Assembly (NCBI GenBank): GCA_965215195.1
Contig: CBDCDC010000002.1
Span: forward strand, 928,001-992,000
Origin: Candidatus Latescibacterota bacterium
Lineage (GTDB): Bacteria; Latescibacterota; UBA2968; UBA8231
Length of the DNA stretch: 64,000 nucleotides
Direction of reading: 5' to 3'
Shown here in pieces: positions 2,397-27,380 of the stretch. The position numbers and the translations under genes were made by a program. The first letter of the stretch is position 1, and every line of letters starts with the position of its first letter. The notes under the pieces were generated by a model. That model saw only the letters and a program-made list of their open reading frames with translations. It was not told where the DNA came from and ran no database searches.

Positions 2397-3274
2397 GGCT
2401 GCACCCGCACTCGGCTCTCTTTTACGAGGGACTTCTCCAGCGCCTCCAGCACCGCCACCGGCCCCAGCATGGTCTGCGCGGTCTCGTCGGTTTTGCCCGT
2501 GCGGAACATGGCGCAAAAATCGCGAATGCCGCTCAGATACGGGCTCTCGTCAAATGAGATCGGCGCGTCAATGCGGCCCTTTGCGCCGATGGCACTCAAG
2601 TGGAAGCCTAAGGCCGCGCCCCCCACCAAATTCAGGGTGGCTACGCAGCCGTCGCGGTACGTGAGAGTAGCCGTGTGGTTGGCACCTGCCCCGCGATGGA
2701 CCTCGGCCCAGCATATATCCGGGCCGAGCAGGCGCAGCACCATATCCACTTGGTGAATGCCATAAAAAAAGACCCCGCCCCACTTCGCCTTGATGTCGCA
2801 GGGGCCAGTGGAGACCAACGCCTGAATGGGGCCGAGCTGGCCCATCTTTTGGGCAAAGGCCCGGTAAGCAGCCTGTTTGGGCAGCGTGGAAAAGGAGCAG
2901 ACCGGCACACCTAACTCCTCAGCCCGCGCCAAAAAGCACTTCCCCTCGGCCAAGCGGTAGCAAAACGGCTTGTCGATAAAAAGCGGGATCTTGGCCTCCA
3001 GCAGCGGCCGGGCCGCCGGCAGGTGCTCCTTGCCGTGGCGGTGATCCACTACCGCTGCATCGACTTGGCCGATCAACGCTTCGGGTGCTCGGACCATGTG
3101 CGGGATTTGACCGGCCGCGGCCGCGGCTTGCGCGTATTGGGCAGTCTCGCCCCACACATGGGTCACCCGCACTCCCTGCACCCTTTTTTCGACGTTGAGT
3201 ACCTTGGCGATGGCTGCTGTGTGGCTGTTTTCCGCCCCGACGATGCCGATGGTCAGCACCTTATGCCTCCCCAA
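2393..3274 (-). CDS. Gfo/Idh/MocA-family oxidoreductase (probable start GTG at 3259)
   Basis: IGIVGAENSH Rossmann motif, FIDKP, YGIH. Confidence 0.85.
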   Translation of the reverse strand: MGRHKVLTIGIVGAENSHTAAIAKVLNVEKRVQGVRVTHVWGETAQYAQAAAAAGQIPHMVRAPEALIGQVDAAVVDHRHGKEHLPAARPLLEAKIPLFIDKPFCYRLAEGKCFLARAEELGVPVCSFSTLPKQAAYRAFAQKMGQLGPIQALVSTGPCDIKAKWGGVFFYGIHQVDMVLRLLGPDICWAEVHRGAGANHTATLTYRDGCVATLNLVGGAALGFHLSAIGAKGRIDAPISFDESPYLSGIRDFCAMFRTGKTDETAQTMLGPVAVLEALEKSLVKESRVRVQP

Positions 3275-4085
3275 ACGGCCACAGCTTCAACACCGTCTTG
3301 CCCAGCACCCACTCCAGATCCTCCGGCGCGATGAACTTCATCTCGTCGCGCACCACCGTCAGGGGTTGGGCGTATTCGGCCCTCGACAGACACACTGGCC
3401 AATCCGTGCCCCACATGATGCGCTGCGGCCCAAAGGTCTGATACACTTCCTCGACCATCTCGTGCGTATCGGCCCAAGGGTAGCCCTGCTTGGACAGCGA
3501 CCATGTGTGGCTGATCTTGACGTACACGCGGGGGTAACGGGCCATATCCATTAGCAATTGCCGCTCCTGCGGGTTGTCGGGATGGGCACTGGCCATGTGG
3601 TCGATGCAGCAATCCACCTCCGGGTAGCGGTCGAGAATCCGCGCCAAATCCGGCAGCCGGCTCGTCCCGGTCAAGATCAACATCGGGATCCCCAAATCCT
3701 GAGCGCGCCCGAAAATCGGGTCCATCCCCGGCCCCTTAAACCAATCGCCGCTCGCATCCCGCGACGGCGAGAGCCGCATCCCGTGCAGGCCGTGCTCTTC
3801 CGTCCACATGGACATGTGATCGGCCGCGGCCGGGTCTTGGGGATTGATGCGCCCCACGGCCATGAAGCGGTCAGGATATTGCTCGATGACGTGGGCGACA
3901 TAGCTATTGTCCCAGCGGTAGTGAATCACCTGCACCAGCACGGTCTTTTCCACCCCGTTGGCGTCCATCAGCGCCAGTAGGTCTTCGGCCGTGTGGTCTT
4001 CGGCGGGCGGATTGGGGTTTTCCGCTGGCCAGGGAAAGGCCGGATCGTTGATCCATACGTGTACATGAGGGTCGATGATGCGCAT
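3261..4085 (-). CDS. Amidohydrolase_2 family protein (sugar lactonase-like)
   Basis: IIDPHVHVW metal motif, IDHMA, WGTDWP; start at MRIIDPH. Confidence 0.85.
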   Translation of the reverse strand: MRIIDPHVHVWINDPAFPWPAENPNPPAEDHTAEDLLALMDANGVEKTVLVQVIHYRWDNSYVAHVIEQYPDRFMAVGRINPQDPAAADHMSMWTEEHGLHGMRLSPSRDASGDWFKGPGMDPIFGRAQDLGIPMLILTGTSRLPDLARILDRYPEVDCCIDHMASAHPDNPQERQLLMDMARYPRVYVKISHTWSLSKQGYPWADTHEMVEEVYQTFGPQRIMWGTDWPVCLSRAEYAQPLTVVRDEMKFIAPEDLEWVLGKTVLKLWPFGEA

Positions 4086-10110: not shown

Positions 10111-12702
10111 ATGACCCAAGCAGATGCACACACCGACTACGAGCGATTGTTGCTGGTCTATCTCCACGACCCGGTCGACAAGGCTCTCGACATCCGCGGA
10201 CACGAGGCCCGCGCCACCCGCTACGCTTCGCACGCCCGCGGCTGGGACGCGACCCGCCGAGAAATCAAGCATTCAGCTCAGCTAGCAGACCAACTCGCCG
10301 CCATCGCCGAGCGCATCCCCATGCCGACCGCAGGACCCAAGGGAGCGCGCGCCGTCGGCCCGGAAGACGGGCGGATCGAAGTGCGGCATCCGGTCAGCGC
10401 ACAAACAGACATGCTGGAGGGGCTGGCCCTCGACGAGAACCGCGTGGCAGAGGTGATTGACCGCATCGTCGCCGGTCTGCCCGACGACCCGCGGACGCGC
10501 TTTCTCGCGCTCTGGCGGCTGCTGCCCGAACGGCTTGCCCCACAGATCGCTCGGCTGCCGGCCGACACCCGCGTACCCGACCACACGCTGATTCAACACG
10601 CAGACATCACAAGCGGCATCTGGGCCAGTACAGAGACACGCGGCCATGCGTACCTATCGCTCTCGCTCGGCCCGGTGCAGACGTTTATCGAAGCGGCCCG
10701 CAGCGTGCGCGATTTGTGGTCGGGCAGCGCCATTCTGTCGTGGCTGACGTTCCAAGGCATCGGCCCGGTGCTCAACGCACTCGGGCCGACTGCGCTCGTC
10801 TATCCAGCCCTGCGCGGCAATCCGCTGATGGACCTGTGGCTGCGCGAGCAGGACGGGCTAGAGGACCGAGTACCAGTACCGTCGAAAACATTGCGCCGGG
10901 CCCCGTCCATCCCCAACCGCTTTGTCGCTCTCGTACCCTATGGGCCGGACGGTTCCCATGCCAAAGCCATGGCGCAAGCCTGTGCCAAAGCGGTCCGTGC
11001 GGCTTGGCAATGCCTTGCAGACGAGGTGCATCGCTCCCTCGATGGGAAATTCTCGGCAATCAACCCTGATTGGGCACGGCACTGGCAAGAGCAAGTGAAT
11101 GGCTTCTTCGACGTCAAAACCTCCATTCTACACGAGCGAGACCTGCGCGATGAACAGCTAGCCCGTCTGATCGGCGGCAAGGACTCATTCGACGAAGTGT
11201 GGTGTGAGGCCGCCAAGGTGCGTAGACTGGCCGACGCGATTCCACGCAACGAGCGTCCGGGCTACGACCAGCATTCAGCCGGCCGCTGGCAAGCCCAACT
11301 CGAAGCATCGGCGCGGCTGATGGAAGCCCAGCGTTCTATCCGCCACGTGCCGACTATTGAGGTCGAGACACCCACTCCGCCCAAGTGCAGCCTGCTCGGC
11401 TCCTACGAGCAGATGGGGCCGGCCGCTCTCAGTGATTCCCGAGACTTCTGGGACGAGGCTGCCAAGGCAGTCTCGGTAGCCGGCGTCCGCCTGCGAAAAC
11501 GCGAGCGTTTTTCCGCGGTCGCCTTGTGCAAGCGGTTTGCCGCACCGGCGTTCTTCGTCCGCCAATTAAAGCTCAATCAGCGTGCCTTGCGCTTCCCGGA
11601 TACGGCGACAGTAGCAGCGGCCGCATGGCTGGCCGCGGAGGGAATCAACCCGGACGATATCCGGTGTGAACACAACGACTGGAACGGCCGCTGGCTTCAC
11701 CAAAAACACCAAAACGATGTGGAGGATGGCGACCAACCTCCGCCGGAGGGAGTTTGGCAGAAAATCAAGGCCGCACGTAAGGAGAATCCACCGCCCGCTT
11801 ACTACGCGATTCTGGCGATGGACGCGGACGACATGGGCCAGTGGCTCAAGGGCGATCATGCGCCCAAGGTGCGCGAGGTCCTGCACCCGAAAATGGTCCG
11901 TTACTACGAGCAGCTTGGCGACGAGGCCACGGCCGGCCTTGAGGCCCGGCGGCCCGTTGGCCCGGCCCTGCACGCCTCAATCAGCGAAGCTCTCAACAAT
12001 TTCGCCAGCCACATCGCCCCCGGCATTGTAGAGAACGACAAGGGCACGATGATCTACTCAGGCGGCGACGATGTCTTGGCCCTGCTGCCGGCGCGCCGGG
12101 CGGTCGCTTGTGCGGCAGAGTTGTGCCGCGCCTTCCGCGGCGAGGACAAAGGCCCGCCCGGCTATATAGAGCGAGACGGGCACCAACTGCTGACCATGGG
12201 CGCGAAGGCCACCCTATCGGCCGGCATTGCCTTTGTACACTACAAGGAGGATTTGCGCTTGGCACTCCAAGCGGCCCGCGACGCGGAAAAAACCGCTAAG
12301 AAAAACGGCAAGAATCAGCTTGCACTTTGCTTTATGCGCCGTTCCGGCGAGCACTCCAAGGCTGGTCTGTCGTGGGAACATGGGCCGTGGTTCCAAAAGA
12401 TGATTGCCATCTTCGCCGATGGGGCCACCGCCCGCTGGACCTATCGCCTGCGCCAAGAACTGCCGACCTTGCAGGGCAGCAACATTTCCGCCGGAGCTGT
12501 TGCTGCCGAGATACGACGGCTCGTGGATCGGACCAAAGACGACAAGGCCTCCGGTTCAACTGGTCCTACAGGCGAAGACGCGGAGCGCTGGTGGCAGGCT
12601 TTTTCTCAAGCAGGGCGACAACGTGGAGATCTTCTCAAGGACTTCACCCTACTGTGCCAAGGGGCGTCGTTCGTAGCGCGAGGTCGCGATGAAGGACGGT
12701 AA
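10111..12702 (+). CDS. cas10: Type III-B Cas10/Cmr2
   Basis: YLHDP N-terminus, PADTRVPDH, LGPVQTFIEAARSVRDLWSGS, Palm motifs YYAILAMDADDMG and YSGGDDV. Confidence 0.95.
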   Translation: MTQADAHTDYERLLLVYLHDPVDKALDIRGHEARATRYASHARGWDATRREIKHSAQLADQLAAIAERIPMPTAGPKGARAVGPEDGRIEVRHPVSAQTDMLEGLALDENRVAEVIDRIVAGLPDDPRTRFLALWRLLPERLAPQIARLPADTRVPDHTLIQHADITSGIWASTETRGHAYLSLSLGPVQTFIEAARSVRDLWSGSAILSWLTFQGIGPVLNALGPTALVYPALRGNPLMDLWLREQDGLEDRVPVPSKTLRRAPSIPNRFVALVPYGPDGSHAKAMAQACAKAVRAAWQCLADEVHRSLDGKFSAINPDWARHWQEQVNGFFDVKTSILHERDLRDEQLARLIGGKDSFDEVWCEAAKVRRLADAIPRNERPGYDQHSAGRWQAQLEASARLMEAQRSIRHVPTIEVETPTPPKCSLLGSYEQMGPAALSDSRDFWDEAAKAVSVAGVRLRKRERFSAVALCKRFAAPAFFVRQLKLNQRALRFPDTATVAAAAWLAAEGINPDDIRCEHNDWNGRWLHQKHQNDVEDGDQPPPEGVWQKIKAARKENPPPAYYAILAMDADDMGQWLKGDHAPKVREVLHPKMVRYYEQLGDEATAGLEARRPVGPALHASISEALNNFASHIAPGIVENDKGTMIYSGGDDVLALLPARRAVACAAELCRAFRGEDKGPPGYIERDGHQLLTMGAKATLSAGIAFVHYKEDLRLALQAARDAEKTAKKNGKNQLALCFMRRSGEHSKAGLSWEHGPWFQKMIAIFADGATARWTYRLRQELPTLQGSNISAGAVAAEIRRLVDRTKDDKASGSTGPTGEDAERWWQAFSQAGRQRGDLLKDFTLLCQGASFVARGRDEGR

Positions 12703-13765
12703 TACCCTACTCCAGCTATCGCTTGAGCCGGTTGACGGCCTCTTCTTCCGCGATGCGCGGCCATTTGAGCAGGCCAGCCGGGCACAGTCCGGCCTGCCCA
12801 TGCCGCAGACCCTCGCCGGTGCCGTGCGTAGCCTGCTGCTGGAGCGGCACGGGGTGGATTTCGTCCGGCTGGGAGAACGGATGCAAACCGGCGCTTCCTT
12901 TGCCGAAGCTCTGACCGAGCTTGGCCCGGAGGTTGCAGCCGTGGCCTCGGTGCAGGTACGCGGCCCTTGGTTCACCTTGAATGGCGAGGTACTGATGCCG
13001 ACGCCGGCCACCCTCAAACGAAAAAAGAAAACCGCAAAGCTCGTGCGGCTTGACCCGCTCAAAGTGCCGCTGCCGGGTTGGCGGCCCGAAGTGCCGGGGA
13101 TGCTGCCGTTGTGGCGGCGCGGCCGGGAAACCGCAGAGCCCGCCGATGATTTCCTCAAACTGTCCGGTTTGCATCGCTTCCTCAACGGCGGTACGCCAAA
13201 ACCGGACGAATTGGTGCCGACAAACGACTTGTACGATTTCGACGACCGCACCGGCATTGGCATCGATCCGAGCCGCAACGCCGCGGCCGAAGGTTTCATT
13301 TATGGCATCAGGATGCTGGTCCTGAAATCTGAGGCTGGCTTGTACGCTGAACTGAGCGGTCCTGAGGCCGCGCTAGTGCCGATCGCGGCCGAACCCGGGC
13401 TGATGCGTTTGGGCGGCGAAGGCCGGCACGTCGCGGTCCGCACGGTTGAGCGGCCGGTCAACTGGCCGCAGATACCGCCCGCAGCGGACAAAGGCCGGCT
13501 GGTGCTGCTGGCCACGCCGGCTTGGTTCAATGGCTGGAAGCCGCCGGCCCTCGATCCGGTAGCAGCGGCCGTTGGTAACGGGCAGCCGGTTTCCGGCTGG
13601 GACTTAGCCAAAGGCGCTCCCAAGCCCAACCGCTTCATGGTCCCGGCCGGGTCCGTCTATTTTTTGCCACCAAACGCCCAAGTCCCAGACAAATTAGTCG
13701 CTGACGACGAAGACGCGAGCGTCGGGTGGGGTAGCTTTCTGGAGGGAAACTGGAACTATGTCTGA
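12689..13765 (+). CDS. cmr3: Cmr3 (Cas5 group)
   Basis: LEPVDGLFFRDARPF, P.PQTLAGA, RTGIGID, RLGGEGR, VSGWDLA, VPAGSVY, GWG. Confidence 0.95.
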   Translation: MKDGNTLLQLSLEPVDGLFFRDARPFEQASRAQSGLPMPQTLAGAVRSLLLERHGVDFVRLGERMQTGASFAEALTELGPEVAAVASVQVRGPWFTLNGEVLMPTPATLKRKKKTAKLVRLDPLKVPLPGWRPEVPGMLPLWRRGRETAEPADDFLKLSGLHRFLNGGTPKPDELVPTNDLYDFDDRTGIGIDPSRNAAAEGFIYGIRMLVLKSEAGLYAELSGPEAALVPIAAEPGLMRLGGEGRHVAVRTVERPVNWPQIPPAADKGRLVLLATPAWFNGWKPPALDPVAAAVGNGQPVSGWDLAKGAPKPNRFMVPAGSVYFLPPNAQVPDKLVADDEDASVGWGSFLEGNWNYV

Positions 13766-14651
13766 CAAAACCTTGCTGTTCATTCACGCCCTGACCGGAC
13801 TCCATCCCGGCAGCGGCACGGCCTTGGGCGCGGTCGATTTGCCGGTGCAACGCGAGCGTCATACCGACTGGCCGCTGATACCCGGCTCGTCGCTCAAGGG
13901 CGTCATGCGGGCCGAATACGCGCAGGACAACCGGAAGGATGAAGACGTTCTGGCTGCGTTCGGGCCAGAGACTGAGGCTGCGTCTGACCACGCCGGCGCG
14001 GTCGCCTTTTCGGACGCGCGCATCCTCGCCTTCCCGGTGCGCTCGCTGACCGGCGTGTTCGCTTGGGTGACCTGCCGTGACGTACTGGCCCGGCTTTCGC
14101 GTGATCTCGGGCTCGTTGGCGGCGATAGCTTCCCGGCTGTTCCCACAGTCGCTAAAGACAAAGCCGCTTGCGTCGCGGACAGTCGGCTGCTGGCGCACGG
14201 CGAACAACTCATGCTGGAAGAGTTCGAATTCTCACGCGACGGCGACGCACAGGAAATTGCCAACTGGATCGCTGAGCGGGCCGTGGCAGACGCGGCCACG
14301 AAAATTCGGCTGCGCTCGCATCTGGCCGTTCTGCACGATGACGATTTTACCCACTTCGTCCGCAACGCCACCGAGGTCGTAGCTCGGGTCGGGCTCGACG
14401 AACAGAAGACCGTGCGCAAGGGTGCCCTCTTCTACGAGGAATACCTGCCACCGGAGACCCTCTTCTACTCGCTGGTGCTGTGCAGCAAAAGCCGCCGCAA
14501 GGCACGCGACAAAAGCGCTGCGGAGATTCTCACGTGGCTGCGCGAAAAAGCACCTGAGACGCTCCAAATCGGCGGCGGCGAGACGGTCGGCAAGGGCTTC
14601 TGCGCGGTGCGCTTTGACGACGCGGCCAAGGAGGAAAACAATGAGCGATAG
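13758..14651 (+). CDS. cmr4: Cmr4 (Cas7-group backbone RNase)
   Basis: LHPGSG..VDLPVQRERHT..IPGSSLKG with the catalytic Asp present, LFYEEYLP, QIGGGETVGKG. Confidence 0.95.
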   Translation: MSDKTLLFIHALTGLHPGSGTALGAVDLPVQRERHTDWPLIPGSSLKGVMRAEYAQDNRKDEDVLAAFGPETEAASDHAGAVAFSDARILAFPVRSLTGVFAWVTCRDVLARLSRDLGLVGGDSFPAVPTVAKDKAACVADSRLLAHGEQLMLEEFEFSRDGDAQEIANWIAERAVADAATKIRLRSHLAVLHDDDFTHFVRNATEVVARVGLDEQKTVRKGALFYEEYLPPETLFYSLVLCSKSRRKARDKSAAEILTWLREKAPETLQIGGGETVGKGFCAVRFDDAAKEENNER

Positions 14652-15069
14652 CCGGCCCACCCTCGACCAACGTCGGGCCCAACACGCTTGGAAGACTGTA
14701 GAGCAAGCCAAAGCCTCACTCAACGCGAAAAAAGACAAGGAGGATTTTGCCCGCGAAGCCAAGCGGCTGCCGGTGCGCATCAAGACCGCCGGCTTGGGGC
14801 AGGCACTCGCTTTTCTCCTCGCAAAGGCCAAGCAGGACAAAAACAAAGGAGAAGACGCCCGTGGCCGACTGCTGGTTGCGCTAGGCGACTGGCTCCTAAA
14901 AGAGCGCGAATTGGCGACCCGTCCTAACGCCGCCGCCGACCGCGTACTAATCCAAACCCTCATCAACGGCGACGCCAACCTGCTGCGCCGCGCCACTGAA
15001 GAGGCGCTCCTGTACCTGCAATGGCTGACCCGGTTCAGCGAGGCCGAACTCGGAACGGGAGAGGAGTAA
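14641..15069 (+). CDS. cmr5: Cmr5 (Cas11 small subunit)
   Basis: MSDSRPTLDQRRAQHAW..LPVRIKTAGLGQALAFL..ATEEAL..WLTRFSEA; GGAGG RBS before ATG at 14641. Confidence 0.92.
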   Translation: MSDSRPTLDQRRAQHAWKTVEQAKASLNAKKDKEDFAREAKRLPVRIKTAGLGQALAFLLAKAKQDKNKGEDARGRLLVALGDWLLKERELATRPNAAADRVLIQTLINGDANLLRRATEEALLYLQWLTRFSEAELGTGEE

Positions 15070-15072
15070 GCG

Positions 15073-17457
15073 ATGGCTCGCAGCCCTAGCCGTTCCCAAC
15101 GCCGGGACCGGACGCATACTATGCCAGCCTCCAACGCCGACCAACTCCCCAACGGGCCAATCCTTCCCCGCTCTACGTGTAACCTCGTAGATAAGGTCGT
15201 GCTCAATCACCGCCATGCCGGCCTGCAACTCGACAAGCTGTCGTCAGCCGGGGAGATGGAAAAGCAAAAACTTGCGCTGGTCGATGTCGCGCACACCTGC
15301 GGCGACGCGAAGTTGCTGGAGATGCTGATCAACCGCCGCTGCGCTGCACTGAACGCTCTCCGTGCTGAACGTCTCCTGATGACCACCCGCGGCTCGCTGA
15401 CCCTGCACCTGTCGCGGTCGGGCGCGCTGGAAAACGCCGGCATCGCCCTGCATCCGGTGTACGGCTTCGTCTATTTACCCGGCAGCGGCATCAAGGGCTT
15501 GGTCCGCTCTTGGGCTGAGACAGTGTGGGCTCCGGCGCAGTCTGACAAAAAGGAGGCGTGGCGGACGATTGAAAAAGCCTTCGGCTGGAGTCCTCAGTCG
15601 GAAAACCACAAGTTCCCGCAGCCGAAAAAGGGATTGCCGGGTTGGCGTCCCAGCGAAATAGAAGCACCGAAAGGGGCCGCGAGCGGACGGCTGGTGTTCC
15701 ACGACGCTTGGCCGCTTAGCTGGCCCAGACTAATAGTCGATGTCGTCAACAATCATCACCCCGACTATTACGACGGCAAAGACGATCCCGGCGACTGGGA
15801 GGACCCGAGGCCCGTGTATTTCCTCGCCATCGGCGCAGGCAACCAGTTCGACTTTGCCATCTCCGACCGCAAGCCCGACGACGGCCTGCTCAGCTTGGCA
15901 AGAGGCTGGCTAACAGACGCGCTGACCTCCGAGGGGGCCGGTGCCAAGACTGCGGCTGGCTACGGACGCTTTGAGCCGGTCGAGATGCTCTCGCCCGATT
16001 TCGCCAAGGCCGGCTTTGCCAGCGCGAGTTTTGACTTGAAACTGGTCACCCCCGCCTTTCTCGCCGGAGCCTCCCAACAGAAAGACGACTGCGACCTGCG
16101 TCCGGCCACCCTGCGCGGCCTGTTGCGCTGGTGGTGGCGCACCATGCACGCGGCCCACCTCGACCGGGCTTCGCTCAAGCGGCTGGAAACCGCGGTCTGG
16201 GGCGACGCGGAATCGGGCAGTCCGGTTCGCATTGCTGTGAATTTGGTGGAAGGTGGAGAGCCACGGCAGCACCCGGACAAGCAAGATCGACAGTTCCAGC
16301 AAGAACACGGTCTGCGGCGGCCCCAATCCAGTCAAAGAACAATCCAAGGATTGTTCTACGCTTCCTACGGCATGGCAGAAAAGGACCGTCGTTGGTTTCG
16401 CCCTGCTGGGTCGCTCTGGCGCGTCACCTTGACGGCCCGACGCGGTTATTTCGACAAAAATAAAAAAGCCCCTGCCATCCCCCTCTCGCCGGACCTGCTC
16501 ATAGAACAAGCCAACGCAGCCCTGTGGCTACTGACGCGGTTTGGCGGGGCCGGCTCGCGGTCGCGCAAGGGCTTCGGTTCTTTTGACGATATTGAGGTGC
16601 AGGGCATCGGCTCAATGGAAGATTGCATCAAGGCCGCAACGCGGTTCCGGGACGCCTGCGGCCTTGGAGGGAGGCGGGGACATCCGGTTGACGCGCCGGC
16701 CCTAGAGGATGTGCTGACGATGGACGATGTGGCGACACGTTGGGAGGATCCTTGGTATGCGCTTGACCGGACCGGCATGGCACTGCAACTGTTCGCCAAG
16801 AGTCTTGATTCCGAGAAGCGTATTGCGCTCGGCCTGCCGCGCCGTGTAGGTAGGGGCCGCAATGCACAGTCTCTCAGAGCTGGACAGATTGATCGTCACG
16901 CCTCCCCAGCACTTTGGAGCCTCGCAAAAAGCCGAAACGGAACCCTGCTGGTTCGCCTCATCGCATTCCCGGCCGCACGGCTGCCTGAGAAAGCCGCTAG
17001 CAGGACAATTCTGCAAAACCTTATCGACTTTGCACGTCAGCAATTGGAACAGCAGGCCGGGCAGTCCCCGCGCCCAAGCGGGCGAGGAGGTCGCGGACCG
17101 TCGGGCACCGGACGCCCGGACAGGCGAAGAAGTAACAGGTCGGCACCCTCGCGTCCCCCGCAGGGAAGCCCCAAGGCCGACCTCCCCAAAGCGCATGATC
17201 GCGTCAAGGCCGAACTTTTGGAGGAGAAGACGAAGAAAGGCGGATGGAAGGCCAAGCACATAGATAGCGGTTTATCAGGCCCGATACAAGACGCTGGGAA
17301 CGTCCCCGCCGACGCCAAGCCGGGCCAGCCCGTCGAACTGACGGTCGCCTCGGTTGGCTCGAAAGAGATGCAATTCAAATGGGCCGAACCCCGGCCGCCT
17401 AAGAAAACATCCGGCCGGCATAGCAAGCAGGAGCCTCGCAGAGGAAGCCGCCGATGA
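15073..17457 (+). CDS. cmr6: Cmr6-Cmr1 fusion with C-terminal low-complexity linker and OB/S1-like tail
   Basis: Cmr6 part: LHPVYGFVYLPGSGIKG..GAGAKTAAGYGRF. Cmr1 part: LVTPAFLAGA..LRPATLRGLLRWWWR..FGGAGSRSRKGFGS. Single 794-aa frame. Confidence 0.9.
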   Translation: MARSPSRSQRRDRTHTMPASNADQLPNGPILPRSTCNLVDKVVLNHRHAGLQLDKLSSAGEMEKQKLALVDVAHTCGDAKLLEMLINRRCAALNALRAERLLMTTRGSLTLHLSRSGALENAGIALHPVYGFVYLPGSGIKGLVRSWAETVWAPAQSDKKEAWRTIEKAFGWSPQSENHKFPQPKKGLPGWRPSEIEAPKGAASGRLVFHDAWPLSWPRLIVDVVNNHHPDYYDGKDDPGDWEDPRPVYFLAIGAGNQFDFAISDRKPDDGLLSLARGWLTDALTSEGAGAKTAAGYGRFEPVEMLSPDFAKAGFASASFDLKLVTPAFLAGASQQKDDCDLRPATLRGLLRWWWRTMHAAHLDRASLKRLETAVWGDAESGSPVRIAVNLVEGGEPRQHPDKQDRQFQQEHGLRRPQSSQRTIQGLFYASYGMAEKDRRWFRPAGSLWRVTLTARRGYFDKNKKAPAIPLSPDLLIEQANAALWLLTRFGGAGSRSRKGFGSFDDIEVQGIGSMEDCIKAATRFRDACGLGGRRGHPVDAPALEDVLTMDDVATRWEDPWYALDRTGMALQLFAKSLDSEKRIALGLPRRVGRGRNAQSLRAGQIDRHASPALWSLAKSRNGTLLVRLIAFPAARLPEKAASRTILQNLIDFARQQLEQQAGQSPRPSGRGGRGPSGTGRPDRRRSNRSAPSRPPQGSPKADLPKAHDRVKAELLEEKTKKGGWKAKHIDSGLSGPIQDAGNVPADAKPGQPVELTVASVGSKEMQFKWAEPRPPKKTSGRHSKQEPRRGSRR

Positions 17458-17503
17458 CCGATTCGCAAATCGCCCCTATTACCTCGCAGAGGCGAACGCA
17501 ACT

Positions 17504-18265
17504 ATGAGGATTTCGCACACATTCGCCGATAAACAAAAAAGCATCTGCAACGATCCAGCCGGCGAGAAACACCCATCCGCTGCGGCCATCCCGACGCCCC
17601 CATTGGAAAACGGCGATCGGCTCACGCGGGAGGAGTTTGAGCGACGCTATAAGGCCATGCCAGACGTAACGAAGGCGGAACTGATCAATGGAGTGGTATA
17701 TATGAGCTCACCTGTTCGCTTTCGCGCTCATGGCAGACCGCACGTATTGCTGCTCACTTGGCTGGGGACATATAGTGCGTTCACGCGAGGGGTCCTTTGT
17801 GCGGATAACACCACAGTTCGCCTCGGGGCAGAGAGCGAGCCGCAGCCAGATGCCTTGCTGCGCCTAGAGCCAGAGGCGGGTGGAAATTCGCGGATTAGCG
17901 CCGACGATTATGTAGAAGGCGCACCAGAGTTGTTAGCCGAAATCGCGGCCAGTAGTGCCTCGTACGATATGCACGATAAAATGGATACCTATCGCCGCAG
18001 CGGCGTGCAGGAGTATCTTGTCTGGCGCGTGTACGACGAGCAACTCGACTGGTTTGCTCTCCGCGACGGTGAGTATATCCGTCTGACGCCTGATGAGTCT
18101 GGCGTGATTTCCAGTCAGGTGTTTCCGGGGCTGCGGTTGTCCTTGTCCGCATTATTGGCGGCTAATGCGGCTCAGGTCGTGGCCGAATTGCAGAAAGGAC
18201 TAGGGACGGCCGAGCACGCCGCGTTTGTCGCCCGACTAGGAGATGCCCACGACCCGTACCAATAG
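17504..18265 (+). CDS. Uma2-family PD-(D/E)xK endonuclease-like protein
   Basis: PPLENGDRLTREEFERRY..AELINGVV..EPQPDA..GAPEL.AEIA..DK..Y..GVQEY; start uncertain. Confidence 0.9.
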   Translation: MRISHTFADKQKSICNDPAGEKHPSAAAIPTPPLENGDRLTREEFERRYKAMPDVTKAELINGVVYMSSPVRFRAHGRPHVLLLTWLGTYSAFTRGVLCADNTTVRLGAESEPQPDALLRLEPEAGGNSRISADDYVEGAPELLAEIAASSASYDMHDKMDTYRRSGVQEYLVWRVYDEQLDWFALRDGEYIRLTPDESGVISSQVFPGLRLSLSALLAANAAQVVAELQKGLGTAEHAAFVARLGDAHDPYQ

Positions 18266-19474: not shown

Positions 19475-20512
19475 ATGCTCACCCTCTACGTCACCGAACC
19501 CTCGGCTGTCGTCCGCCGCACGGCCGGCTCCATCACCGTCACGCTCGATGAAGACCCCGACGGCACGGGTCCCCTGCCCGAACGACGGCGACGCTTGCTT
19601 GAAGTTGAGCCGCATCGCTTGGAGCTGATTGCATTGGTGGGCCGCGCCCACATCACCTTAGACGCGACGCGGCTCTGCTTAGAGCAAGGCATTGCAGTCG
19701 CTTGGTTTCGCAGGAACGGCGACTTTGTGGGCCGCCTCGTCCCCGAACTGTCGCGCACGGCCGATCTGCGCTTGGCGCAGTTTCGCCTCGCGGACGACGA
19801 GCACCAAGCACTGCCGCTGGCCCAAACCTTTGTCGCAGCTAAACTCCACAATGCAGCCGGGGTACTCGCGGCCCTGCGCTCCAACCGCCGCAATGAGCCG
19901 ACCCTCGGCCGCGCCATAACCAAACTCAAAGCCATGGCCGCGACCGTAGCCCAAGCACCCACGCGCGAGGCTCTGCTGGGCTTTGAAGGCGATGCGGCCC
20001 GCCGCTACTTTGCGGGCTTCAAGCTCGGGTTCACCAGCGACATTCGCTTTGTTAGCCGCGCCCGCCGGCCGCCGCCGGACCCGGCCAATGCCCTGCTCTC
20101 GTTTGGCTATGTGCTGTTGGCCAATGCCTTGGCCAGCCTTTTGGAGGCCCGTGGTTTTGACCCGTATCTCGGGTTTATGCACACGGTCCGGTCCGGTCGG
20201 CCCAGCTTGGCCCTCGACTTGCTCGAAGAACTGCGGCACCCGGTAGTCGATCGCTTTGTCTTGCGCGTTTGCAATTTGCGCCAACTGCGGCCGGCGCATT
20301 TTGAGGCCGATTCTGCGCGAGGGGGTGTGCGTCTTACACGCGATGGGATGCACATCTTTTTTCGCGCTTGGGAAGCGTTTATGGATGCTCCCCTGCCCGG
20401 AATCGCCGAGAACATCGCACCAGAAAATTTGATTCGCCGTCAAGCCGATCGCTTAGCCGCTCACGTGCGCCAACGCGATCCCTATAAACCCTTGCTTTTG
20501 CGTCGCTTATAA
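19475..20512 (+). CDS. cas1: Cas1 (no RT or Cas4 fusion)
   Basis: LLGFEGDAARRYF, RRPPPDPANALLSFGY, GFDPYLGFMH, LALDLLEELR. Confidence 0.95.
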   Translation: MLTLYVTEPSAVVRRTAGSITVTLDEDPDGTGPLPERRRRLLEVEPHRLELIALVGRAHITLDATRLCLEQGIAVAWFRRNGDFVGRLVPELSRTADLRLAQFRLADDEHQALPLAQTFVAAKLHNAAGVLAALRSNRRNEPTLGRAITKLKAMAATVAQAPTREALLGFEGDAARRYFAGFKLGFTSDIRFVSRARRPPPDPANALLSFGYVLLANALASLLEARGFDPYLGFMHTVRSGRPSLALDLLEELRHPVVDRFVLRVCNLRQLRPAHFEADSARGGVRLTRDGMHIFFRAWEAFMDAPLPGIAENIAPENLIRRQADRLAAHVRQRDPYKPLLLRRL

Positions 20513-20525
20513 AGGAGGACGGCCT

Positions 20526-20813
20526 ATGTCTCACTATGTCGTATGCTACGATGTGGTCGATAACAAACGCCGCTACAAGGTGGCCGCTTGTTTGGATGCT
20601 TATGGCGATCGCGTACAGAACAGCGTGTTTGAACTGCCCATGGATAGCACACTTTTGGACAAGTGCATCGCCGAGGTCGCTGGTCTGATCGACGCGGCCA
20701 AAGACAATGTAGCCATCTATCGCCTCTGCTCGGCCTGTGCGACCGAGCGTTTCTATTTGGGCGTGGGGGAAAAGGCCGAACGCATCGGCGATGAGCAGGT
20801 CTTCATCGCGTGA
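20526..20813 (+). CDS. cas2: Cas2
   Basis: YVVCYDV..RR.KVA..L..YG.RVQNSVFE..D.V.IY.LC; AAGGAGG RBS. Confidence 0.95.
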   Translation: MSHYVVCYDVVDNKRRYKVAACLDAYGDRVQNSVFELPMDSTLLDKCIAEVAGLIDAAKDNVAIYRLCSACATERFYLGVGEKAERIGDEQVFIA

Positions 20814-21009
20814 GCGTCTGTCGTAACCACCGATGCCGCCGCAGAAGCCCCTTGGTTACGAATTTGACTAACCTTTTGAAAACCTTATATTTACGTCCAA
20901 GAGCCGAACTGGTAGCCGCGATATTGGGCGGCATGTGCAAGCCTCAGTCGTTAGGTTACGAAAAGCGTTCAGGTAACTGCTTGTCAGACAAGCAGAAATC
21001 TAGGACGCC
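20814..21009 (+). promoter_or_regulatory. CRISPR leader with direct and inverted motifs and IHF-like sites
   Basis: Relatively AT-rich spacer between cas2 and the first repeat. TCGTAACCA/TGGTTACGA inverted pair; GGTTACGAA at 20854 and 20954; palindrome CTGCTTGTC-A-GACAAGCAG at 20977-20995. Confidence 0.85.
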
Positions 21010-24000
21010 ATGTGAAGTTCTGCCCCGCTTATCAGGGGATTGAAACCTTTCTCTTGGTTGGGGCGCGGCGGCAGGCGCAGCTGGGATGTGAAGTTCTGCC
21101 CCGCTTATCAGGGGATTGAAACTAGAGAACACCCAGCTCATCTTCGGGGCGCCCCCCTTCCATGTGAAGTTCTGCCCCGCTTATCAGGGGATTGAAACCA
21201 TTGACATCGCCATTCATGCGATCAAGCGCGTGGCGGCGGTCCATGTGAAGTTCTGCCCCGCTTATCAGGGGATTGAAACCCCTCGTGGAAGCCCTCGCCC
21301 CGGTGCGCCAGCAAGACGCGCTGGATGTGAAGTTCTGCCCCGCTTATCAGGGGATTGAAACCGTCCCCCGCGCTGCCGATGAGGGGCCAGACATGGGCGG
21401 TGGATGTGAAGTTCTGCCCCGCTTATCAGGGGATTGAAACTCCTGATCTTGGCAGAACAGGGCGTCGTCCCCCGTCATATGTGAAGTTCTGCCCCGCTTA
21501 TCAGGGGATTGAAACACTACCCCACCCTCGGCTTCGACGACATCGTGGGCTTATGTGAAGTTCTGCCCCGCTTATCAGGGGATTGAAACGGGTGTCGGGG
21601 GGAGCCGCGCCCGCTACCGGGCGGACCTGTATGTGAAGTTCTGCCCCGCTTATCAGGGGATTGAAACGATGGCTTCTATGAGGGAGTTGATACCACCCCC
21701 AACTATGTGAAGTTCTGCCCCGCTTATCAGGGGATTGAAACTAACTCGAGAGATTGACAGTTAGATTCTAACAATTAAAATGTGAAGTTCTGCCCCGCTT
21801 ATCAGGGGATTGAAACTCGGTCGCTGTTCTCTGGTGTATCCGCGCCTCCGGTCAAAATGTGAAGTTCTGCCCCGCTTATCAGGGGATTGAAACCCGGTGA
21901 ACCCACTGCTCTAGATGGGTCACCCGCGTCGAAATAATGTGAAGTTCTGCCCCGCTTATCAGGGGATTGAAACCCTCGCTATCCGCACTATTGCGGATTT
22001 TGTCGTGTAGTTATGTGAAGTTCTGCCCCGCTTATCAGGGGATTGAAACCCGATTGACCTCGCGAAACTGGGTAGGGATCATCACTCCATCATGTGAAGT
22101 TCTGCCCCGCTTATCAGGGGATTGAAACTCTTCTCCATTGAGAAGTTCGTTTGCTACATGGGCCATATGTGAAGTTCTGCCCCGCTTATCAGGGGATTGA
22201 AACGAGCAGAGCCGCGCTCTCCGCCGCTTCGGCGATACTGAAAAAATGTGAAGTTCTGCCCCGCTTATCAGGGGATTGAAACACGTGGTGCCTGTGCGAC
22301 GCCTGCGCCTTGGAGGCGTGGCATGTGAAGTTCTGCCCCGCTTATCAGGGGATTGAAACAAAGCGTCCGCCGCCGCCCACGCATCGAGGCCCCGGCAGCA
22401 AATGTGAAGTTCTGCCCCGCTTATCAGGGGATTGAAACCTGACCTCATTGGGGGGCACCCTCTATATGAGCGACGCGATGTGAAGTTCTGCCCCGCTTAT
22501 CAGTGCGGCAGCGCCGGATGCACGCAGTACACGGCCCCTAAGTGAGCGACGCGATGTGAAGTTCTGCCCCGCTTATCAGGGGATTGAAACCGGGTACCAG
22601 CCTGACCCATGCTCAGACGGCCCATGAGCAAGATGTGAAGTTCTGCCCCGCTTATCAGGGGATTGAAACGGCCTTGGGGCCGACGGGGGGCGGCTTTACA
22701 CGTTCAGCGATGTGAAGTTCTGCCCCGCTTATCAGGGGATTGAAACCTCGGCCTCAGTTGCCAGCGACGCACCGTTATACGCAGCCATGTGAAGTTCTGC
22801 CCCGCTTATCAGGGGATTGAAACTGGAGCACCGCGCCCTCCCAGATGTACCGCCGCCCCATGTGAAGTTCTGCCCCGCTTATCAGGGGATTGAAACGAGC
22901 AGAGCCGCGCTCTCCGCCGCTTCGGCGATACTGAAAAAATGTGAAGTTCTGCCCCGCTTATCAGGGGATTGAAACACGTGGTGCCTGTGCGACGCCTGCG
23001 CCTTGGAGGCGTGGCATGTGAAGTTCTGCCCCGCTTATCAGGGGATTGAAACGACAACTATAATACGTACCATGGGATTTCTCCTTTTTATATGTGAAGT
23101 TCTGCCCCGCTTATCAGGGGATTGAAACATGCCCGTGGCGTAGGTGAGGCCCAGCTCCTGCGTGTCGTCATGTGAAGTTCTGCCCCGCTTATCAGGGGAT
23201 TGAAACGTGGGGTCCTCCCCTGTCGTCAGCACAGCCGTCGGAAGGATGTGAAGTTCTGCCCCGCTTATCAGGGGATTGAAACGTAGCCAGCCGCCACCGT
23301 GTAAACTTCGGTGGAGGCGACCTTATGTGAAGTTCTGCCCCGCTTATCAGGGGATTGAAACTCCACGTACGACGCTATCTCGTCGCGGAAGGCCTCGATC
23401 CCATGTGAAGTTCTGCCCCGCTTATCAGGGGATTGAAACTTTGGTAGTGCCATAGTGTTTCCGTATTGCGAGTTTCACATGTGAAGTTCTGCCCCGCTTA
23501 TCAGGGGATTGAAACATGGTTCTCTCACTCTCTTGAAACAATTCTTCTGTTTTTTCCATGTGAAGTTCTGCCCCGCTTATCAGGGGATTGAAACGTAGCC
23601 AATTCGCGTTGCGTTGCGTAACTCGGCGCCCTCGCTATGTGAAGTTCTGCCCCGCTTATCAGGGGATTGAAACCAAGGCCACTCAAGGTTGCAACGCGGG
23701 CCTGCGGGTCCATGTGAAGTTCTGCCCCGCTTATCAGGGGATTGAAACGATGATTCCGAACGGACCCTGATCGATCGTCAAGCCGATATGTGAAGTTCTG
23801 CCCCGCTTATCAGGGGATTGAAACCGCCGCCTAGCGCAGCACCTGGCGGCATTGTCCCCGGCGATGTGAAGTTCTGCCCCGCTTATCAGGGGATTGAAAC
23901 GACGGCCTGAGCGTCTAGTCGGGCTTGCTTTTCTTTCTCATGTGAAGTTCTGCCCCGCTTATCAGGGGATTGAAACGGCCCTTGGCGAGGTAATACATCC

Positions 24001-26510
24001 CCGTGCATACAGCCCCATGTGAAGTTCTGCCCCGCTTATCAGGGGATTGAAACTTGGGGGACCTGGGCTTCATACGGCTGGGGCGCGGCCGTATGTGAAG
24101 TTCTGCCCCGCTTATCAGGGGATTGAAACATCCGCTTCATGGTATTCTCCATGTTTCGGGTCATCCCCCCATGTGAAGTTCTGCCCCGCTTATCAGGGGA
24201 TTGAAACCTATCAACGTGTGCGCCAGATCAGTCCCCCTCGTCGAAGAGCCATGTGAAGTTCTGCCCCGCTTATCAGGGGATTGAAACGCGATGACTCGGA
24301 TGGGGGGCACTCGCGGGTACGCGACTATGTGAAGTTCTGCCCCGCTTATCAGGGGATTGAAACCCAGCCGGCCACGCAGCAGGGCGTGTTACACAGGAGG
24401 GATGTGAAGTTCTGCCCCGCTTATCAGGGGATTGAAACCTGCGACGCCGGGCGAGTCCAGATCCGCGGCCAGCAGGCATGTGAAGTTCTGCCCCGCTTAT
24501 CAGGGGATTGAAACGACACCATCCCCTTTGGAGGAGGCCGAGTGCCTTTTCATGTGAAGTTCTGCCCCGCTTATCAGGGGATTGAAACCCCCACAGGGGC
24601 AGCCCTTGGCAGACGCCGGCGAGGATACGATGTGAAGTTCTGCCCCGCTTATCAGGGGATTGAAACCCCCACAGGTCGCGGGGCGTGGTGTGCTCCTCGT
24701 CGAGATGTGAAGTTCTGCCCCGCTTATCAGGGGATTGAAACCCTTTAATCAGCTTTCGCTGACCCCTCAGGAATCACCCCCCATGTGAAGTTCTGCCCCG
24801 CTTATCAGGGGATTGAAACATTTGCTTGGCCATGCTTAGCGAACATTCCAGCTGGATAACCAATGTGAAGTTCTGCCCCGCTTATCAGGGGATTGAAACT
24901 CCTGCTTCTTAAATTTGCCACCACTCTCAGTGATGGCGTTATGTGAAGTTCTGCCCCGCTTATCAGGGGATTGAAACTCTACTGGTGCTATCAACTCCTG
25001 CACACCGACACGAACCTTGATGTGAAGTTCTGCCCCGCTTATCAGGGGATTGAAACCGGGCCTTTTGTGTAGTACAGAATCGTGTCGTGTCCCATGTGAA
25101 GTTCTGCCCCGCTTATCAGGGGATTGAAACACCGTGCGGCTTGCTCCTCGGTCAAGGCGATGTCGAAGTATATGTGAAGTTCTGCCCCGCTTATCAGGGG
25201 ATTGAAACGTAGACGACAAGGCCACGCGGGAGGATTTGTCGGCGGCGGGATGTGAAGTTCTGCCCCGCTTATCAGGGGATTGAAACGCGCGGCCGGCGGC
25301 TCTGTGCAGCGGCCTTTTTCCTTGATGTGAAGTTCTGCCCCGCTTATCAGGGGATTGAAACCCGCAGCCCCCGGCCGAGACGGCTGCGGGGGGCCTCGGC
25401 GAGATGTGAAGTTCTGCCCCGCTTATCAGGGGATTGAAACGGAACGCCATGAAGTACATTATCGAGGAGTTCTCACCGTCGGATGTGAAGTTCTGCCCCG
25501 CTTATCAGGGGATTGAAACCTCTACTTCGGCCTCCTCTTCGTTCTCATCGAGGAGAAGATGTGAAGTTCTGCCCCGCTTATCAGGGGATTGAAACTGAAT
25601 GGGCGAGAGGGACCGGCAGCCGTTGAAGCCGACATGTGAAGTTCTGCCCCGCTTATCAGGGGATTGAAACTGACCCGACGCTGCCCCCGTCTCCTAGTGG
25701 GCTGACCCTATGTGAAGTTCTGCCCCGCTTATCAGGGGATTGAAACGCGGCCATGAGCTGTTTGTCCGCCTCTTTTTCCGCCGAATGTGAAGTTCTGCCC
25801 CGCTTATCAGGGGATTGAAACCAAGGCCTGCTGGCCCCGTAGAGCCACGACCGGGAGAGGCACATGTGAAGTTCTGCCCCGCTTATCAGGGGATTGAAAC
25901 CGTAGACCTCGGGCTGGACGCTGGGCACCCAGAAGTCGAGATGTGAAGTTCTGCCCCGCTTATCAGGGGATTGAAACCCGCCGCCAACGCCAACCCCTTC
26001 ACGGAGTCGGTCGGGGCATGTGAAGTTCTGCCCCGCTTATCAGGGGATTGAAACTGGCGTCGCTCGTCGCGCGGGCAATTGCCGTTGTCTTGGCATGTGA
26101 AGTTCTGCCCCGCTTATCAGGGGATTGAAACTCGCTTTGCGCCATTTCAGTGTAGGCCAACCAAGCATACCCATGTGAAGTTCTGCCCCGCTTATCAGGG
26201 GATTGAAACCGCAAGGACTCCATATTTCCCTCCTTGTTTTATGGCGTATGTGAAGTTCTGCCCCGCTTATCAGGGGATTGAAACCTCGCCGCCGGTCAGC
26301 CCCAGCGCATCCAGGTCCAGATGTGAAGTTCTGCCCCGCTTATCAGGGGATTGAAATTGAACTGATCGCCGTCGAGCTCGTACGGCTTCTCCATGTATGT
26401 GAAGTTCTGCCCCGCTTATCAGGGGATTGAAACCGCTTAGCCCGGTCCTCGGCGGATAGGCCCAGCTCATCGGATGTGAAGTTCTGTCCTGCTTATCAGG
26501 GGATTGACGA
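21010..26510 (+). CRISPR. CRISPR array, 37-bp repeat ATGTGAAGTTCTGCCCCGCTTATCAGGGGATTGAAAC, about 72 repeats / 71 spacers (36-45 nt)
   Basis: Hand count. The 3' ATTGAAAC handle, the leader at left and a degenerate terminal repeat at 26474-26510 give + orientation. One truncated repeat at 22478-22503. Confidence 0.99.
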
Positions 26511-26564
26511 CCCTGCCAGTACATTTGTTGTTTGTCGCCTATAAATAGATCGGCACAAGCCGCT

Positions 26565-27380
26565 ATGCACTGGCACAAACACCTCGAAGTGCTGCTTTCT
26601 CGCGTTCAGATACAGGCGTGGCAACTTCTGCTCGACACGCCCGAGGTGCGGGCGACCGCGCCCATGTTGCGCGGCGTCTGGGGACGCGCACTGCGACATT
26701 TGGATGAGGAAGTTTATCAGCAGGTTTTTGCAGGCAAAGCATTGGGACATCGCCGCATCCCCCGCTACATCCTGCGACCTGCCCCCCCCGACCCGGCGAT
26801 TGCACCGGCTATCGAGTGGATCCTGCTCGGGGTGGATGAGGAACTGGAGGAAGTGCTGTGGCGGGCATGGGATGTGGCCAGCGGCATGGGGCTGGGGCCG
26901 GAGCGCGTACCGTTTCGCATCCGCGAGCGGCGGCCCCTCAGCGCGGGCCAATCCGACTGGCCCCTGACCGGCGATCCAGCCACAACGCCGTGCAGCCTAC
27001 AGTTTGGTACGCCGCTGCGCCTACTCCGCCGCGGCACCCTCCTTGCGGCACCCGACTTAGCGGCCATCGCCACAGCCGCTATGCGCCGCTATGCTGGCCT
27101 AGCCGGTATAACCGGCGGAGAATCCTACCGCGACTTGATGCGAGCCGTCAAGCAGCAAGCCGCCGCAACGCCGGCCGCCCCTTGGCGCGGTGGTCGGCTC
27201 GATTTTTTGCGCTGGTCCAGCACCCAACAGCGCGAGCTAAACCTGCGCGGCGTAGTCGGCGCGTTGGACTTGCCCGCTGGTCCCGGCCCGCTCTGGCCCC
27301 TGTTGGCCGCATCCTGTTGGACCCACATTGGCAAAGGCGCGGTATTTGGCTTAGGCCAATTGTGCATCGAAAAATCCTGA
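26565..27380 (+). CDS. cas6: Cas6 crRNA-processing endoribonuclease
   Basis: MLRGVWGRAL, F.TPLRL, RWSSTQQR, and C-terminal glycine-rich loop HIGKGAVFGLG; adjacent to the array. Confidence 0.85.
   Translation: MHWHKHLEVLLSRVQIQAWQLLLDTPEVRATAPMLRGVWGRALRHLDEEVYQQVFAGKALGHRRIPRYILRPAPPDPAIAPAIEWILLGVDEELEEVLWRAWDVASGMGLGPERVPFRIRERRPLSAGQSDWPLTGDPATTPCSLQFGTPLRLLRRGTLLAAPDLAAIATAAMRRYAGLAGITGGESYRDLMRAVKQQAAATPAAPWRGGRLDFLRWSSTQQRELNLRGVVGALDLPAGPGPLWPLLAASCWTHIGKGAVFGLGQLCIEKS

Follow-up and report, generated by a model that had tools for sequence, protein, structure and literature searches.

The DNA analyzed here is a stretch of 64,000 nucleotides (nt), hereafter the window, from the genome of a Candidatus Latescibacterota bacterium (assembly GCA_965215195.1, contig CBDCDC010000002.1). 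It contains a type III-B CRISPR–Cas locus, in which all of cas10/cmr2, cmr3, cmr4, cmr5, cmr6, and cmr1 were found with NCBIfam and Pfam matches above the cut-offs (Table 1). A CARF-type gene upstream of cas1 is also part of the locus, and cas1 and cas2 adjoin the leader of a CRISPR array, A2, whose first repeat lies 200 nt from them. We focused on one compound unit in the interior of this array, in which a spacer-sized insert lies out of register with the repeats. The rest of the array is regular: besides the copy that closes the compound unit it has 70 full repeats, 68 of which equal the consensus, while the penultimate differs at its last base and the terminal one is degenerate, and these two end variants place the leader end on the left. 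The normal spacers (n = 70) are 36–45 nt long, most commonly 39 nt (15/70), with 10/70 of 40 nt.

The out-of-register unit

The compound unit reads, in order, as a spacer, a 26-nt stump of the repeat, the insert, an 11-nt spacer tail, and an intact repeat. An original prediction, made from the sequence of the window, had described an exact 37-nt duplication around a 39-nt insert at 22504–22542, and we confirmed it letter for letter: positions 22467–22503 and 22543–22579 are identical, and each 37-mer consists of the last 11 nt of the spacer at 22439–22477 followed by bases 1–26 of the repeat. Since the bases next to the two copies differ on both sides (A versus G before them, T versus G after them), the duplicated segment is exactly 37 nt long. 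The chance that the tails of neighbouring spacers have 11 nt in common is about 2e-5 over the whole array, under uniform base frequencies. As the 11 duplicated nt are those of the leader-side spacer, this spacer must have been in place before the event, so that the repeat used was an internal one. This is what had been predicted, namely a leader-distal event at an internal repeat behind a pre-existing spacer, and the position of the leader on the left bears it out.

The insert was likewise correctly described as spacer-sized, as its 39 nt (or 40 nt, see below) correspond to a spacer length, the 39 nt being the mode in A2. The stump was said to lack both the 3′ arm of the repeat hairpin and the handle. 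In Cas6-processed repeats, the final eight bases become the 5′ handle of the CRISPR RNA (crRNA), and these are indeed gone together with the rest of bases 27–37; of the arm, three of the four G are missing. A hairpin predicted for the stump and the first bases of the insert (22478–22518) reaches −13.2 kcal/mol, versus −8.0 for the normal repeat hairpin, and may be due to chance.

The donor of the insert

The 39-mer recurs once in the same genome, at G000:C2:353742–353780 on the opposite strand, with 39/39 identical bases, against a chance expectation of about 4e-17 for a match of this kind. The identity begins exactly at the left border of the insert and stops at its right border plus one T (22543), giving a 40-nt match. 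An insert of 39 nt would go with a duplication of 37 nt, and one of 40 nt with a duplication of 36 nt; the sequence fits both equally. The earlier statement that the duplication has exactly the repeat length thus stands for the two 37-nt copies, and is softened by the ambiguous T at 22543, which permits the 36-nt alternative.

The donor site lies about 600 kb from the array, inside a gene for a short-chain dehydrogenase (SDR; adh_short, E 1e-47), and the genes upstream of it are ordinary metabolic ones. SDR orthologues with 86–92% identity occur in 24 of 30 congeners, and four more have orthologues with 68–71% identity; this conservation across the genus indicates that the donor is native DNA. 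At the insert, the top strand of the array reads as the complement of the SDR coding strand in reverse, and the insert is antisense to the SDR mRNA. The search of viral and plasmid databases that the original prediction had proposed for the 39-mer did not lead to a mobile element. The phage records searched gave no match, and the plasmid records gave only two weak partial matches, at a conserved stretch of a ketoreductase-like enzyme; together with the genus-wide conservation of the donor gene, these results rule out a foreign origin, and the donor is the bacterium's own chromosome.

Two other descriptions of the segment were also rejected. An RNA gene at the donor site is ruled out, as Rfam gave no match and the site is coding. 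The insert also cannot be read as part of a 50-nt spacer behind a 26-nt repeat, since the donor match covers 39–40 nt and the next 11 nt do not come from the donor.

Assembly support for the junctions

The two novel junctions were examined in assembly contigs, not raw reads, from public runs (X1–X3 from one study, X5 from another), which were aligned to positions 22283–22709; three of the runs are possibly the source of the assembly itself. Both the junction of stump and insert and that of insert and tail-repeat are present in contigs of all four runs and both studies, without differences and without indels or joints, and the misassembly that the original prediction had wished to see checked was not found in these short-read contigs. 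Both X2 and X3 contain a 95-nt piece that covers 22478–22572 without differences, at depths of 993 (neighbouring spacers, 935–964) and 494 (475–503), respectively. In X1, the pieces 22474–22533 and 22514–22572 also agree throughout, at a depth of about 586, versus 480–500 for their neighbours. Furthermore, a 40-nt piece of X1, exactly 22504–22543, has a depth of 1295, versus about 590, and this near doubling fits a segment that is present both in the array and in the donor gene. The long donor contigs of X2 and X3 have one other letter over the 40 letters. X5 contributed a 96-nt piece at a depth of 13.8, made up of the insert tail, the 37-nt duplicate, and the insert head (22467–22542), which could reflect either a looped path through the assembly graph or a true second copy of the 76-nt unit in tandem.

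An assembly error that created the junctions is the least credible of the explanations that we considered. CRISPR arrays are admittedly hard to assemble, and the spacer at 22591–22632, just after the compound unit, has no cover in any of the four runs while its neighbours are covered, but such gaps prove nothing. Against an error stand the junctions themselves, seen in short-read contigs from four runs and two studies and at single-copy depth in three of these runs, the doubled depth of 22504–22543 in X1, as expected from one copy in the array and one in the donor gene, and the assembly of the genome into only two contigs. In X5, neighbouring spacers also lack cover, with gaps on 22283–22462 and 22598–22709, and these gaps again prove nothing.

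Origin of the out-of-register unit

We consider it very probable that the unit arose by a full-site integration catalyzed by Cas1–Cas2 at an internal repeat, shifted by 11 nt from the normal register, as the original prediction had proposed; the acting integrase was most likely the one encoded just upstream. The locus has the footprint of such an integration, namely a target duplication of repeat length, an insert of spacer length, a donor copy with sharp borders, and adjoining cas1 and cas2 genes, and neither junction shows microhomology (left, 0 nt; right, 1 nt). In this mechanism, Cas1–Cas2 would insert a 39-nt (or 40-nt) fragment of the organism's own SDR gene into an internal repeat of the type III-B array, with both strand-transfer sites lying 11 nt leaderward of the usual positions: one between 22466 and 22467, within the preceding spacer, and the other after base 26 of the repeat. 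The spacing of the two sites would be kept at one repeat length, and gap repair would then duplicate 11 nt of spacer and 26 nt of repeat instead of a whole repeat. An acquisition in register leaves two complete repeats around the new spacer, whereas here the upstream copy comprises just bases 1–26, and the insert is followed by 11 nt of the older spacer. A unit duplication independent of adaptation copies whole existing units and brings in nothing new, whereas this insert, from a distant gene, had no earlier counterpart in the array. An exchange with a further array having this repeat, recombination being named beforehand as an explanation that would overturn the integration reading, is ruled out, as 72/72 genome matches to the repeat head lie within A2.

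Several observations weigh against integration out of register. The event is a single one: the genome's two further arrays, of 32 and 43 repeats, are regular and yielded no other unit of this kind. The scan of related arrays for further offset duplications, suggested along with the original prediction, was also negative, in that the array of a congener (L019, 14 repeats) is regular, with no such unit, and about 90 repeats of six related loci (L021–L026, in four records) show only one-base variants at array ends. These six loci contain three repeat heads without a full repeat, two of which are copies with a one-base insertion, while the third sits at the cut end of L023, outside the comparison. 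Among the genomes compared, one per species, no strain with an empty site was found, and a metagenome scan for the spacer tail joined to the repeat head gave 0 matches; a similar repeat occurs in 2 of 75 other genomes of the family, both of other species. The 11-nt shift has no explanation in the sequence, as the pseudo-repeat and the repeat are alike at 8/37 positions (counted by eye), and the ambiguous T permits a duplication one base short of the repeat. In addition, the genome has three cas1-cas2 sets, any of which may have supplied the acting integrase. Finally, the support for the junctions consists of assembly contigs only, in which none of the junction-spanning pieces reaches 31 letters to both sides (at most 26–37 and 30); these short anchors are explained by the 37-nt duplicate, which breaks the assembly graph.

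The choice of integrase leads to the first of the other explanations. The genome, in two contigs, has three cas1 genes and three arrays, all with repeats of 37 nt and common 3′ ends, and the same event might have happened in trans, through the Cas1–Cas2 with a primase-polymerase that is encoded beside array A1, docked imprecisely on a non-cognate repeat. Indeed, a primase-polymerase gene adjoins the cas1 of A1, the A1 and A2 repeats have the last 13 bases in common and are alike at 26/37 positions by our own count, spacers of 39–40 nt also occur in A1 (6/31), and A1 carries three perfect self-derived spacers among its 31, by which its adaptation module seems prone to self sampling. On the other hand, we have no direct evidence of cross-talk, the cognate cas1-cas2 pair lies next to the A2 leader, and lengths of 39–40 nt are more typical of A2 (25/70) than of A1. 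We therefore regard action in trans as unlikely, and favour the upstream Cas1–Cas2.

An integrase-free origin appears less probable still. Replication template switching or break repair could have copied 39 nt of the SDR gene and re-entered the array 37 nt upstream, and Cas1 is not needed for arrays to rearrange: passages of PMC8860593 document unit duplications that are independent of it, and in A2 itself spacers 24 and 25 are exact copies of spacers 16 and 17, of 42 and 40 nt (22204–22322 and 22897–23015), with the out-of-register unit between the copies. This recurrence is an ordinary repeat-mediated unit duplication, separate from the out-of-register event. Template switching would have worked with no microhomology on the left and a single base on the right, from a donor about 600 kb away on the opposite strand, and it leaves the repeat-length duplication and the modal-length insert as two coincidences that it does not predict. 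Slightly less probable again is an in-register integration at an internal repeat followed by two 11-nt changes, in which the last 11 nt of the repeat were lost before the insert and the spacer tail was gained after it. Self-targeting spacers are reportedly often accompanied by damaged neighbouring repeats, which would speak for this reading. Such remodelling needs two exact and complementary 11-nt events with zero net change in length, the gained 11 nt being the tail of the upstream spacer, whereas one out-of-register integration covers everything.

As to what may have directed Cas1–Cas2 to an internal repeat, the tail of the leader (20995–21009) and that of the spacer at the event (22463–22477) are alike at five of their last six bases, consecutively from −6 to −2, the best agreement among the 70 spacers. 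A leader-like spacer tail might have drawn the integrase to this repeat. We treat this as a weak lead. It is post hoc, having come to notice through leader contigs misplaced at the event spacer, the likeness is lost when 10 bases are compared, and the leader bases concerned lack conservation in the related L019 array.

Probable silencing of the insert and self-targeting

Judging from the sequence, Cas6 would not cut the stump. The primary crRNA would then begin with the preceding repeat's handle and comprise the old spacer, then the stump and, in its 3′ part, the insert, ending at the next repeat. The crRNAs of type III systems are trimmed at their 3′ ends, and this maturation would remove the insert, leaving the old spacer usable. 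The insert is probably silent, being behind a repeat without a cleavage site and a 5′ handle.

A crRNA made from the insert would pair with the SDR mRNA, and a copy in the correct place would therefore probably trigger type III autoimmunity, if the gene is expressed. This expectation follows from the action of type III systems on transcripts and from the motifs retained by Cas10, an HD pair at residues 19–20 and GGDD at residue 651. The survival of the misplaced copy may be owed to its being disabled.

Four other spacers of the genome match its chromosome, three in A1 and one in A2. All of them are in normal units and all are in the sense orientation, for which the chance is 1 in 16. The perfect matches of A1 are to the 5′ region of the 16S rRNA, a transketolase gene, and a secreted-protein gene, and the A2 spacer at 24439–24477 matches an S4-domain gene of the genome at 37/39 positions. 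The RNA of a sense spacer cannot pair with the target RNA, and such spacers are therefore harmless for an RNA-guided type III system. The sole antisense spacer among the self matches of the genome is the disabled insert. In a type III-A system, spacers from the host are acquired in either orientation, after which the functional ones, complementary to transcripts, disappear, as shown experimentally in passages of PMC8860593, and the 4/4 sense pattern in normal units here agrees with such counter-selection. An escape through a mis-registered, unprocessable unit was not found by a term search of the text of that paper.

Comparison with known integration events

Off-target integration by Cas1–Cas2 reportedly gave rise to “neo-CRISPR” units in Escherichia coli with a type I-E system and over-expressed cas1-cas2, in work by Nivala, Shipman, and Church in 2018. 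As in those units, by what is said of them, the event described here combines a spacer-sized insert and a fresh duplication of about repeat length with a site other than the proper leader–repeat junction. The E. coli units reportedly formed under over-expression and outside arrays, whereas the event here is natural, took place within an array, and overlaps a real repeat by 26 nt; it also belongs to a type III-B locus, and its donor is identified in the same genome. In passages of a citing paper, circumstantial evidence of such off-target integration is given for two other species.

Displaced integration sites have also been obtained with mutated repeats. In passages of PMC6895254, on the type II-A system of Streptococcus thermophilus, mutated repeats move integration sites off the borders of the repeat and lead to partial duplication of a spacer, and for the type I-B system of Haloarcula hispanica (PMC4872114) a misplaced, ruler-dependent second site is reported in mutated repeats. 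The underlying ruler model, in which a repeat-internal motif fixes the second site, was tested in type II-A and is cited for I-E and I-B in the former. Our event resembles these in its sites off the repeat borders and in the partial duplication of a spacer. In those systems, the first site reportedly remained at the leader–repeat junction and only the second moved, as engineered repeat mutations displaced the ruler element, whereas in our event, with a wild-type repeat, the two sites were displaced jointly by 11 nt and kept their span. If a motif in the repeat had anchored the second site while the first lay 11 nt upstream, a duplication of 48 nt would be expected, and one of 37 (or 36) nt was seen. 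The kept span fits a fixed reach of the complex from active site to active site.

We tentatively propose, as an idea that is possible rather than probable, that the unit is a natural record of how this integrase measures, in which the fixed reach of Cas1–Cas2, and not a repeat motif, determines where the second site falls, and that out-of-register integration lets otherwise lethal self spacers persist in type III systems. The 11-nt shift is close to one helical turn, and docking about one turn upstream is a conjecture of the original prediction.

Acquisition at internal repeats is known as ectopic acquisition in type II-A systems (PMC8047081), where it is described for leader mutants of Streptococcus pyogenes and for CRISPR1 and CRISPR3 of S. 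thermophilus. There, as here, the new spacer enters an internal repeat and not the leader-proximal one; as we understand those events, normal units are left, unlike the broken register seen here. Passages of PMC13769266 report that the type III-A Cas1–Cas2 of Thermotoga profunda, without the host factor HU, has limited intrinsic fidelity and forms off-target products in vitro. This is likewise a type III-associated integrase with imperfect site choice, in vitro and on plasmids and not in a natural fossil, and those passages contain no fixed 11-nt offset. Among the literature titles and abstracts searched, we found no natural out-of-register fossil within an array for which the donor is identified.

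Off-target or mis-measured integration is known mostly from over-expression, mutated repeats, and test-tube reactions, and the wild array described here keeps a complete record of it, with the target, the insert, and the donor of the error all within one genome. On the integration reading, full-site insertion at an internal repeat lies within the capabilities of a type III-associated integrase, which would have kept the repeat-length span though the register was lost; the product would be a disabled copy of a spacer otherwise aimed at the organism's own mRNA. This suggests one possible route by which arrays tolerate self-derived spacers. The event also offers a searchable signature, a spacer tail and repeat head duplicated around a spacer-length insert, which could gauge integrase fidelity in uncultured organisms. 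If the proposal is true, such fossils should be enriched for antisense self spacers, and public arrays could be mined, culture-free, for the fidelity and preferred offsets of integrases.

Features of the window and related loci

The coordinates of the features are collected in Table 1.

Table 1. Features of the type III-B locus and of the out-of-register unit, in window coordinates
Feature	Position	Strand	Evidence or remark
Type III-B effector genes	10111..17457	+	NCBIfam/Pfam matches above cut-off
cas10/cmr2	10111-12702	+	NCBIfam/Pfam
cmr3	12689-13765	+	NCBIfam/Pfam
cmr4	13758-14651	+	NCBIfam/Pfam
cmr5	14422-15069	+	NCBIfam/Pfam
cmr6-cmr1 fusion-like open reading frame	15073-17457	+	NCBIfam/Pfam
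cas1	19475..20512	+	TIGR00287, 239 bits, cut-off 71.7
cas2	20526..20813	+	TIGR01573, 55.9 bits, cut-off 24.5
Leader, 196 nt	20814..21009	+	Between cas2 stop and first repeat; parts conserved in the leader of the related L019 array
CRISPR array A2, 71 full 37-nt repeats and one 26-nt truncated copy	21010..26511	+	All 72 genome matches to the repeat head inside the array
Leader-side spacer, 39 nt	22439..22477	+	Last 11 nt within the duplicated target
Target-site duplication, copy 1 (11 nt of spacer and repeat bases 1-26)	22467..22503	+	Identical to 22543-22579
Truncated repeat, bases 1-26	22478..22503	+	Without bases 27-37
Insert, 39 nt, copy of the genome's own SDR gene, antisense to coding strand	22504..22542	+	Exact match to G000:C2:353742-353780, minus strand
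Target-site duplication, copy 2	22543..22579	+	First T also in donor flank
Intact repeat closing the compound unit	22554..22590	+	
Cas6-like gene, 3′ of the array	26532..27380	+	PF10040 CRISPR_Cas6, E 3.2e-11

An open reading frame at 17354–18265, inside the cas operon and flanked by the cmr genes and the CARF-type gene, encodes a putative restriction endonuclease of the Uma2 family (E 3.7e-31). In another organism, at about 2600–3400 of locus L025, two lone copies of the repeat lie beyond the array end, separated by about 300–400 nt that resemble small genes.

Array A1 (G000:C2:198003–200355, locus L017) belongs to a second type III-B locus, outside the window, and has 32 repeats and 31 spacers. 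The CRISPR-associated primase-polymerase beside its cas1 is encoded at L017:11588–13471 (NF040561, E 1e-107). The cmr6 reading frame of this locus (L017:10318–11400) has a C-terminal cold-shock domain (E 9e-28), and a reverse transcriptase of the group II intron type follows the array at L017:17431–19230.

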